A stretch of 64,000 bases of DNA from Escherichia coli. Its GTDB lineage: Bacteria > Pseudomonadota > Gammaproteobacteria > Enterobacterales > Enterobacteriaceae. The notes beneath the pieces were generated by a model. It did not search any database, was not told the DNA's origin, and was given only the letters and a program-made list of their open reading frames with translations. The stretch lies in NCBI RefSeq assembly GCF_002854065.1, contig NZ_CP024147.1. One strand, 5' to 3'. The translations under genes were made by a program, and so were the position numbers. Below are positions 32,973 through 34,168 of the stretch, piece by piece (the first letter of the stretch is position 1; each line of letters starts with the position of its first letter).

Positions 32973-34168
32973 GCGAGATGAGTTATCTGGAAAAATTGCT
33001 GGATGGGGTTGAGGTTGAGTGGAAATCTTTGGGTGAAATTGCCACTAAAATTTACTCAGGGGGAACCCCGGATACAAAAAGAATAGAGTATTGGGAGAAT
33101 GGAACTATTCCCTGGATGAGTTCTGGCGAAGTGAACTTAAAAAATATTGAAAGGACAGAGAAATATATTACTGAGGCTGGATTAAATAACTCTAGTGCCA
33201 AATTAGTACCGAGAAACTCTGTAGTCATAGCCTTGGCTGGTCAGGGAAAAACTCGAGGTAAAGTAGCAAGAATCCGTATCGCATTAGCTACTAATCAATC
33301 ACTTGCAGCACTTACATTTGATGAAAAGAAATTCAGTTCCGATTACGTATTCCATTTTTTAGAGACTCAGTATGAGAGTTTGCGTCAAATATCATCTGGA
33401 AACAGCGGACGCGGCGGACTAAATCTGCAAATGATTTCAGCATACAAAATCCCAATTCCCTGCCCGGACAACCCGGAAAAGTCCCTTGCCATCCAGTCTG
33501 AAATCGTTCGGATTCTGGATAAATTTACTGCACTTACCGCTGAGCTTACCGCTGAGCTTAACATGCGTAAAAAACAATACAACTACTATCGCGACCAGTT
33601 GTTGAGTTTTAAAGAGGGTGAGGTTGAGTGGAAGACTTTGGGGGAAGTGGCTCAGTTTAAGCGAGGAACGGCAATTACCCAAAAACAGACAACACCAGGA
33701 GAAATACCAGTAGTTGCCAATGGACCAATTCCTACTTATTTTCATAGCGAGAGCAACAGACAAGGTGAAACAATCGTTATAGCCAGATCTGGTGCCTATG
33801 CAGGATATGTCAGCTTCTGGGATCAGCCAATATTTTTAACCGATGCCTTTAGTGTTCATTCCGACTTAAAAATTGTAAAACCAAAGTTTATTTACCACGT
33901 GCTACAAAATAAACAAGAGCACATCCATGCAATGAAAAAAGGTGCGGGTGTGCCTCATGTCCGAGTGAAAGAGTTTGAAACCTATGATATACCTATACCT
34001 CCTATCACCGAACAAGAACGTATTGTTTCTATACTCGATAAATTCGACACCCTTACCAACTCCATCACCGAAGGTCTTCCGCGTGAAATCGAGTTACGCC
34101 AGAAACAATACGAGTACTATCGTGATTTACTGTTCAGTTTCCCAAAACCTGAAACTGTCAGTAAATAA
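32969..34168 (+). CDS. hsdS: Type I restriction-modification specificity subunit HsdS
   Basis: 399 aa; ATGA start/stop overlap with hsdM; two target-recognition halves separated by the LTAE-LTAE central repeat. Confidence 0.85.
33533..33556 (+). repeat. 12-bp tandem repeat (cttaccgctgag x2) in the central conserved region of hsdS
   Basis: In frame, encodes LTAE-LTAE; a partial third unit ctta follows. Confidence 0.85.

Follow-up and report, generated by a model that had tools for sequence, protein, structure and literature searches.

The hsd locus and its genomic setting

In a 64-kb stretch of Escherichia coli DNA (contig NZ_CP024147.1; hereafter the window), we identified an hsd locus made up of intact hsdM and hsdS genes and a truncated hsdR gene that runs into an IS1 element (Table 1). 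The locus is chromosomal and forms part of an island with RadC, Ag43, and GTPase genes that adjoins pgaDCBA. The order Ag43–GTPase–hsdMSR was also seen in other E. coli strains (L001, L023, and L040), in which different hsdS alleles carry two or three units of the 12-bp repeat described below.

Table 1. Features of the hsd locus and its surroundings, in coordinates of the 64-kb window
Feature	Coordinates	Strand	Remarks
tRNA-Met	21824–21899		Upstream of hsdM
RadC-family gene	24850–25326	−	Upstream of hsdM
Ag43/Cah autotransporter gene	27063–29984	−	Upstream of hsdM
GTPase-family gene	30280–31191	−	Upstream of hsdM
hsdM, 518 aa, intact	31416–32972	+	TIGR00497; end-to-end match to EcoR124 HsdM
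hsdS, 399 aa, intact	32969–34168	+	TRD1 and TRD2 alternate with conserved N-terminal, central, and C-terminal regions
Central conserved region of hsdS (D1 helix of the coiled coil)	33449–33646	+	Conserved between alleles with different TRDs
Two perfect 12-bp units, CTTACCGCTGAG	33533–33556	+	L189-TAE / L193-TAE, equal to TAEL × 2; from Tandem Repeats Finder, the sequence, and the ORF frame
Partial third unit, CTTA	33557–33560	+	Start of codons Leu197-Asn198; closes the second TAEL
hsdR remnant, codons 1–657 of 1038	34290–36260	+	Colinear with EcoR124I HsdR residues 1–657
IS1, 768 bp	36261–37028	−	Without flanking target duplication; pgaD on the right

The end of hsdM overlaps the start codon of hsdS by 4 nt (ATGA, 32969–32972), and hsdR follows, which on the ORF map is the layout of a Type IC operon. 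HsdM matched the EcoR124 HsdM (7bst_D) with 1154 bits over residues 1–518, and the remaining part of HsdR aligned with its EcoR124I counterpart (2w00_A, residues 1–657) with 1447 bits; both are as close to the EcoR124 subunits as Type IC membership demands. HsdS, an exact match to the E. coli protein AUJ97507.1, aligned with the solved S subunit of EcoR124I (7bst_A) at E = 3.6e-101. Residues 1–18, ~160–227, and ~345–398, including both TAEL units, were identical between the two proteins, and both TRDs differed. Conserved N-terminal, central, and C-terminal regions with a TAEL tandem in the central one are the features of a Type IC HsdS. The central block of the gene shared 96.5% identity with the hsdS of E. 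coli 571, which differs elsewhere, and among RefSeq complete E. coli genomes no record covered at least 80% of the whole gene. Judged by these alignments, the locus is a genuine hsdMSR of Type IC (EcoR124 family), in line with the preliminary description, which had named the gene as an hsdS of the EcoR124 family.

The hsdR reading frame breaks inside helicase motif V (DLLIVVG/GSDSN..., with the slash at the junction), so that the last 381 codons are gone, and continues for 26 codons into IS1 before stopping at 36341. The HsdR remnant lacks the helical and EcoR124_C domains as well as motif VI (QAFSRTNR). Homology to loci with the same hsdS allele ends at position 36260, which is hsdR codon 657; in Salmonella and on further E. 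coli contigs, this allele adjoins a 1038-aa HsdR that includes the EcoR124_C domain. Compared with E. coli 571, in which IS1 lies at the same junction with pgaD, ~1.29 kb comprising the hsdR 3′ end and intergenic DNA is missing to the left of IS1. As read from this comparison, hsdR is a pseudogene, truncated by an IS1-linked deletion. A contig with a full-length hsdR encodes HsdM and HsdS proteins 100% identical to the present ones, and the region upstream of the locus was ~99% identical to its intact relatives. Because hsdM and hsdS are intact and their products are the same as on the contig with full-length hsdR, the most likely state is restriction-minus and modification-plus, in which the system probably works as a methylase only, that is, as an M2S1 methyltransferase. 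With hsdR truncated, a switch in repeat number would alter methylation only. We propose that the locus be annotated as restriction-deficient on account of the hsdR pseudogene.

The 12-bp array as a predicted spacer ruler

Tandem Repeats Finder reported a single array in hsdS, at 33533–33560, with a period of 12, 2.3 copies, 100% matches, and the consensus CTTACCGCTGAG. As read, its context is ...aaatttactgca CTTACCGCTGAG CTTACCGCTGAG CTTA acatgcgt..., with the bases gca directly 5′ of the first unit. The array starts at codon 189 of the ORF 32969–34168, and because the offset (33533 − 32969) is divisible by 3, the units are in frame and encode L189-T-A-E / L193-T-A-E followed by L197-N198. Shifted by one residue, this LTAE–LTAE becomes the doubled TAEL known from the literature, with TAEL × 2 at residues 190–197. 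Two in-frame copies with a partial third had been noted from the sequence beforehand, and Tandem Repeats Finder and our own reading agreed with this, the interval 33533–33556 covering exactly the two full units. In addition, the primers used for TAEL deletion in EcoR124II, as printed in PMC10644984, match the window verbatim at 33528–33547 and 33548–33567; hence the 12-bp DNA unit itself, beyond the peptide it encodes, is the EcoR124 unit. This array is the sole perfect tandem repeat within the window. The other Tandem Repeats Finder match there, at 53170–53206, had a period of 19, 1.9 copies, and 83% matches (ACAAAGCCACACGATAACA).

The number of these units is known to determine specificity in this family. 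Two copies of the 12-bp unit correspond to EcoR124I (GAA N6 RTCG) and three to EcoR124II (GAA N7 RTCG) (PMC3874165 section 25; PMC12707154 Table 1), and the gap set by the unit number is altered through unequal crossing-over (PMC3874165; PMC12707154). In the EcoR124I/EcoDXXI hybrids EcoDR2, RD2, DR3, and RD3, the spacer likewise tracks the repeat number (PMC3874165 Tables 1–2). One TAEL spans slightly over one helical turn, and it shifts and rotates the TRDs by ~1 bp (PMC3874165). According to a 2025 review, the distance D between the target adenines is 7 bp in two-unit enzymes and 8 bp in three-unit enzymes; EcoR124I-delta recognizes GAA N7 TTC, yet has D = 7 (PMC12707154 Table 1). The invariant set by copy number is therefore the adenine-to-adenine distance and not the count of N's.

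On this basis, the repeat in the window very probably represents the TAEL ruler, in its two-unit state, within the first helix of the coiled coil of a Type IC (EcoR124-family) S subunit. In this mechanism, the S subunit holds its two TRDs apart by an antiparallel coiled coil, with the TAEL array in the first helix, and an extra 12-bp unit adds four residues, or slightly over one turn, and thereby displaces and rotates the TRDs by ~1 bp. Two units give a 7-bp spacing of the methylated adenines (N6 in EcoR124I), and three units an 8-bp spacing (N7). The number of units changes by replication slippage or by unequal crossing-over between identical units, and always in frame. The locus in the window most likely works only as an M2S1 methyltransferase, whose predicted target is bipartite, with 7 bp from adenine to adenine; the gain of one unit would move the methylome to an 8-bp interval, with no risk of self-restriction.

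The preliminary description had held that gain or loss of one 12-bp unit switches EcoR124-family enzymes between N6 and N7 spacers, which is borne out both by the reviews cited above and by natural alleles differing in the repeat alone (see below). It had also predicted the shorter-spacer variant from the two copies. This stands as a predicted 7-bp adenine interval, but not as N6 as such, given the N7 of EcoR124I-delta at D = 7. Since the TRDs are unlike those of EcoR124I, the label N6 would depend on the half-sites of this allele, and only D = 7 is predicted. The mechanism itself is classic, experimentally established EcoR124 biology and is already known. Artificially altered repeat numbers were reportedly the subject of a study by Gubler & Bickle in 1991.

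Copy number in this allele and across the family

We examined the copy number among relatives of this hsdS allele. Its 90%-identity cluster had 19 members, and the full-length ones were found on many contigs of E. coli and Salmonella. All five full-length members were 399 aa long (two units), as were two units present in all eight loci read with this allele. No copy-number variant, and hence none of the heterogeneity among close relatives that marks a phase-variable locus, was found in these five members and eight loci. In a near-identical allele from Salmonella enterica (L005–L009), both units end in GCTGAA instead of GCTGAG, a synonymous GAG>GAA change; its presence in both units suggests turnover or homogenization, via contraction and re-expansion or via conversion. 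In Salmonella, hsdR is intact and the locus lies beside an AbiEi/AbiEii pair. With two units as the minimum substrate, the slippage rate may be very low.

We then surveyed 5,426 complete E. coli genomes. Records with at least three or at least four units were counted using repeat-only queries, with E-value cut-offs that excluded 28-nt (2.33-copy) or 40-nt (3.33-copy) matches, and one-copy records using a 36-nt one-copy junction query. The central region was found in ~1,086 records, of which ~607 had the exact two-unit form. Three or more units were present in 452 records (~410 of them with three), four or more in 42, and one unit in at least 4. Among PLSDB plasmids, 401 records from Escherichia, Klebsiella, Salmonella, and other genera carried at least three units. 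Across the family, copy number also varied between alleles with identical TRDs, one of the signs of a phase-variable repeat locus: among the 120 best homologues, the pairs P0069/P0101 and P0067/P0103 differed by two versus one unit and the pair P0111/P0133 by two versus three, with 100% identity in the rest of the protein. In these pairs, the members with one or three units were confirmed in the DNA of independent assemblies.

One three-unit allele (L011, L012) reads CTTACCGCTGCA CTTACCGCTGAG CTTACCGCTGAG and resembles a shifted-register duplication (GCACTTACCGCT × 2), so that expansions need not follow the canonical unit boundaries. Natural one-unit alleles (L010, L013–L015, and L032–L035) occurred in loci of mixed condition: L032 and L035 were fully intact, and hsdM was damaged by an internal stop in L034 and by a frameshift in L014 and L015.

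When we read 12 loci with at least four units (L016–L021 and L026–L031), which represent ~8 independent lineages on E. coli chromosomes and P1-like plasmids, five had four units, five had five, and the remaining two had six and eight. In all 12, hsdM or hsdS was broken by an IS1, IS2, IS3, IS5, or ISEc45 insertion or by a frameshift. By comparison, BLAST lists supplied 10 loci with two or three units, of which 9 were intact and one had a frameshifted hsdM. Counted by lineage, Fisher's exact test gave p = 2e-4; the sample is small (12 versus 10 loci) and was drawn non-randomly, and the comparison is put forward as a lead. Loci sharing the same ISEc45 insertion in hsdS carried five units in NC101/JA0072 (L021) and four in CUVET21-PYO5 and strain 998 (L030, L031), from which it follows that the number changed after, or independently of, inactivation.

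These observations suggest intrinsic instability of the array and a functional limit of two or three, occasionally one, units. Long arrays could reflect relaxed constraint, which would let an unstable repeat run away, or over-long, floppy S subunits could be harmful, such that inactivation is selected. It is conceivable, though we consider it doubtful, that selection polices array length, with two or three (rarely one) units in working systems and four to eight only where hsdM or hsdS is broken. The repeat in the window would then be far more mutable than it looks and could behave as a freely running epigenetic switch; if so, with hsdR dead, the shift of the adenine interval from 7 to 8 bp would be cost-free. 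Should a full survey agree, an array of four or more units would be a simple sign, readable from the genome, that a Type IC system is dead, and the pattern would be in vivo evidence that only two or three (occasionally one) units permit function.

Apart from the ruler, other readings of the array were weighed. The array is short, and nothing else speaks for a chance or neutral duplication with no role in specificity, a reading that we regard as scarcely credible. A period-12 run with at least 16 matched positions is expected ~1.5e-5 times in 64 kb and was seen in none of 200 shuffles. The identical unit occupies the same place in the ~1,086 E. coli records, always inside hsdS, as do the arrays of three or more copies in the 401 plasmid records, and experiments with EcoR124I, EcoR124II, and the EcoDXXI hybrids have demonstrated that the unit affects specificity (PMC3874165). 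We rejected chance duplication on the conservation of the unit and on these published experiments. Unlikely, but less far-fetched, is that the whole locus is a dead relic whose methylase has no longer been expressed or needed since the loss of hsdR, leaving the repeat with no present function. The IS1 truncation and the frequent disruption of E. coli Type IC loci by IS elements fit such decay; against it stand the open hsdM and hsdS, with proteins fully identical to those of the intact-hsdR locus, the near-identical upstream region, and an array at the canonical two units, in contrast to the four to eight in the sampled loci with at least four copies and a broken hsdM or hsdS.

A further reading is that the repeat is a high-frequency contingency locus, an epigenetic switch that goes from two units to three and back in populations of the strain. 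The unit is mutable over evolutionary time (one to eight identical copies in E. coli, and four versus five between loci with the same ISEc45 insertion), the shared GAG>GAA change in Salmonella hints at turnover, and the dead hsdR would remove the cost of self-restriction. We nevertheless consider this very unlikely, given that the array has only two units, far below the repeat tracts of known phase-variable genes, that every full-length public copy of the allele has two, and that Atack et al. class TAEL-length change as a known change of specificity and not as demonstrated phase variation (PMC7383803). Having just two units, the ruler is an evolutionary-scale switch and not a demonstrated high-frequency, phase-variable one. 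The built-in route to switching that the preliminary description proposed is retained for the family, in which alleles differ only in unit number, but public full-length copies of this particular allele include no variant.

For annotation, the array is of value in predicting that the sites marked by the Type IC methylase of this strain have adenines 7 bp apart and that the methylome would be re-specified by the gain of just one 12-bp unit. When specificity is predicted from repeat number, we recommend that it be stated as the adenine interval and not as "N6". Beyond the textbook account, the present analysis adds the hsdR pseudogene, the 7-bp phrasing, the lack of switching among the sampled copies of this allele, and a family range of one to eight units in which the sampled long arrays lie in broken loci.

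Comparison with known systems

The closest known systems are EcoR124I and EcoR124II (= EcoR124/3), the Type IC enzymes of plasmid R124. They share with the locus in the window the gene order hsdM–hsdS–hsdR, near-identical HsdM and HsdR (residues 1–657), identical N-terminal, central, and C-terminal conserved regions of HsdS, and the identical 12-bp DNA unit, of which EcoR124I likewise has two. They differ in both TRDs, so the half-sites here would be neither GAA nor RTCG. Unlike the plasmid-borne EcoR124 systems, the locus in the window is chromosomal, within the Ag43/GTPase island beside pgaABCD, and its hsdR is truncated by IS1.

The repeat-as-ruler principle also applies to the Type IC systems EcoDXXI (TCA N7 RTTC) and EcoprrI (CCA N7 RTGC), and hybrids of EcoDXXI and EcoR124I established that the spacer depends on the number of repeats, whichever TRDs are present (PMC3874165 Table 2). 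Those two systems have three units and an 8-bp adenine interval, whereas the locus in the window has two units. No prrC-like gene was inserted in the locus on the ORF map of the window.

NgoAV of Neisseria gonorrhoeae, also Type IC, resembles the present case in the role of the tetrapeptide number in the central region of HsdS, with GACN6TGC versus GACN7TGC among natural isolates (PMC6789123). It belongs to another organism, uses LEAT/EATL repeats, and its specificity is also tied to a frameshift that truncates hsdS. In the phase-variable Type I systems whose hsdS or hsdM carries SSRs (Atack et al. 2020, PMC7383803), repeat length within an hsd gene likewise alters the expression or specificity of the methyltransferase. 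Those systems carry long tracts that mostly shift the frame at high frequency, in contrast to the two-unit, always-in-frame 12-mer of hsdS described here.
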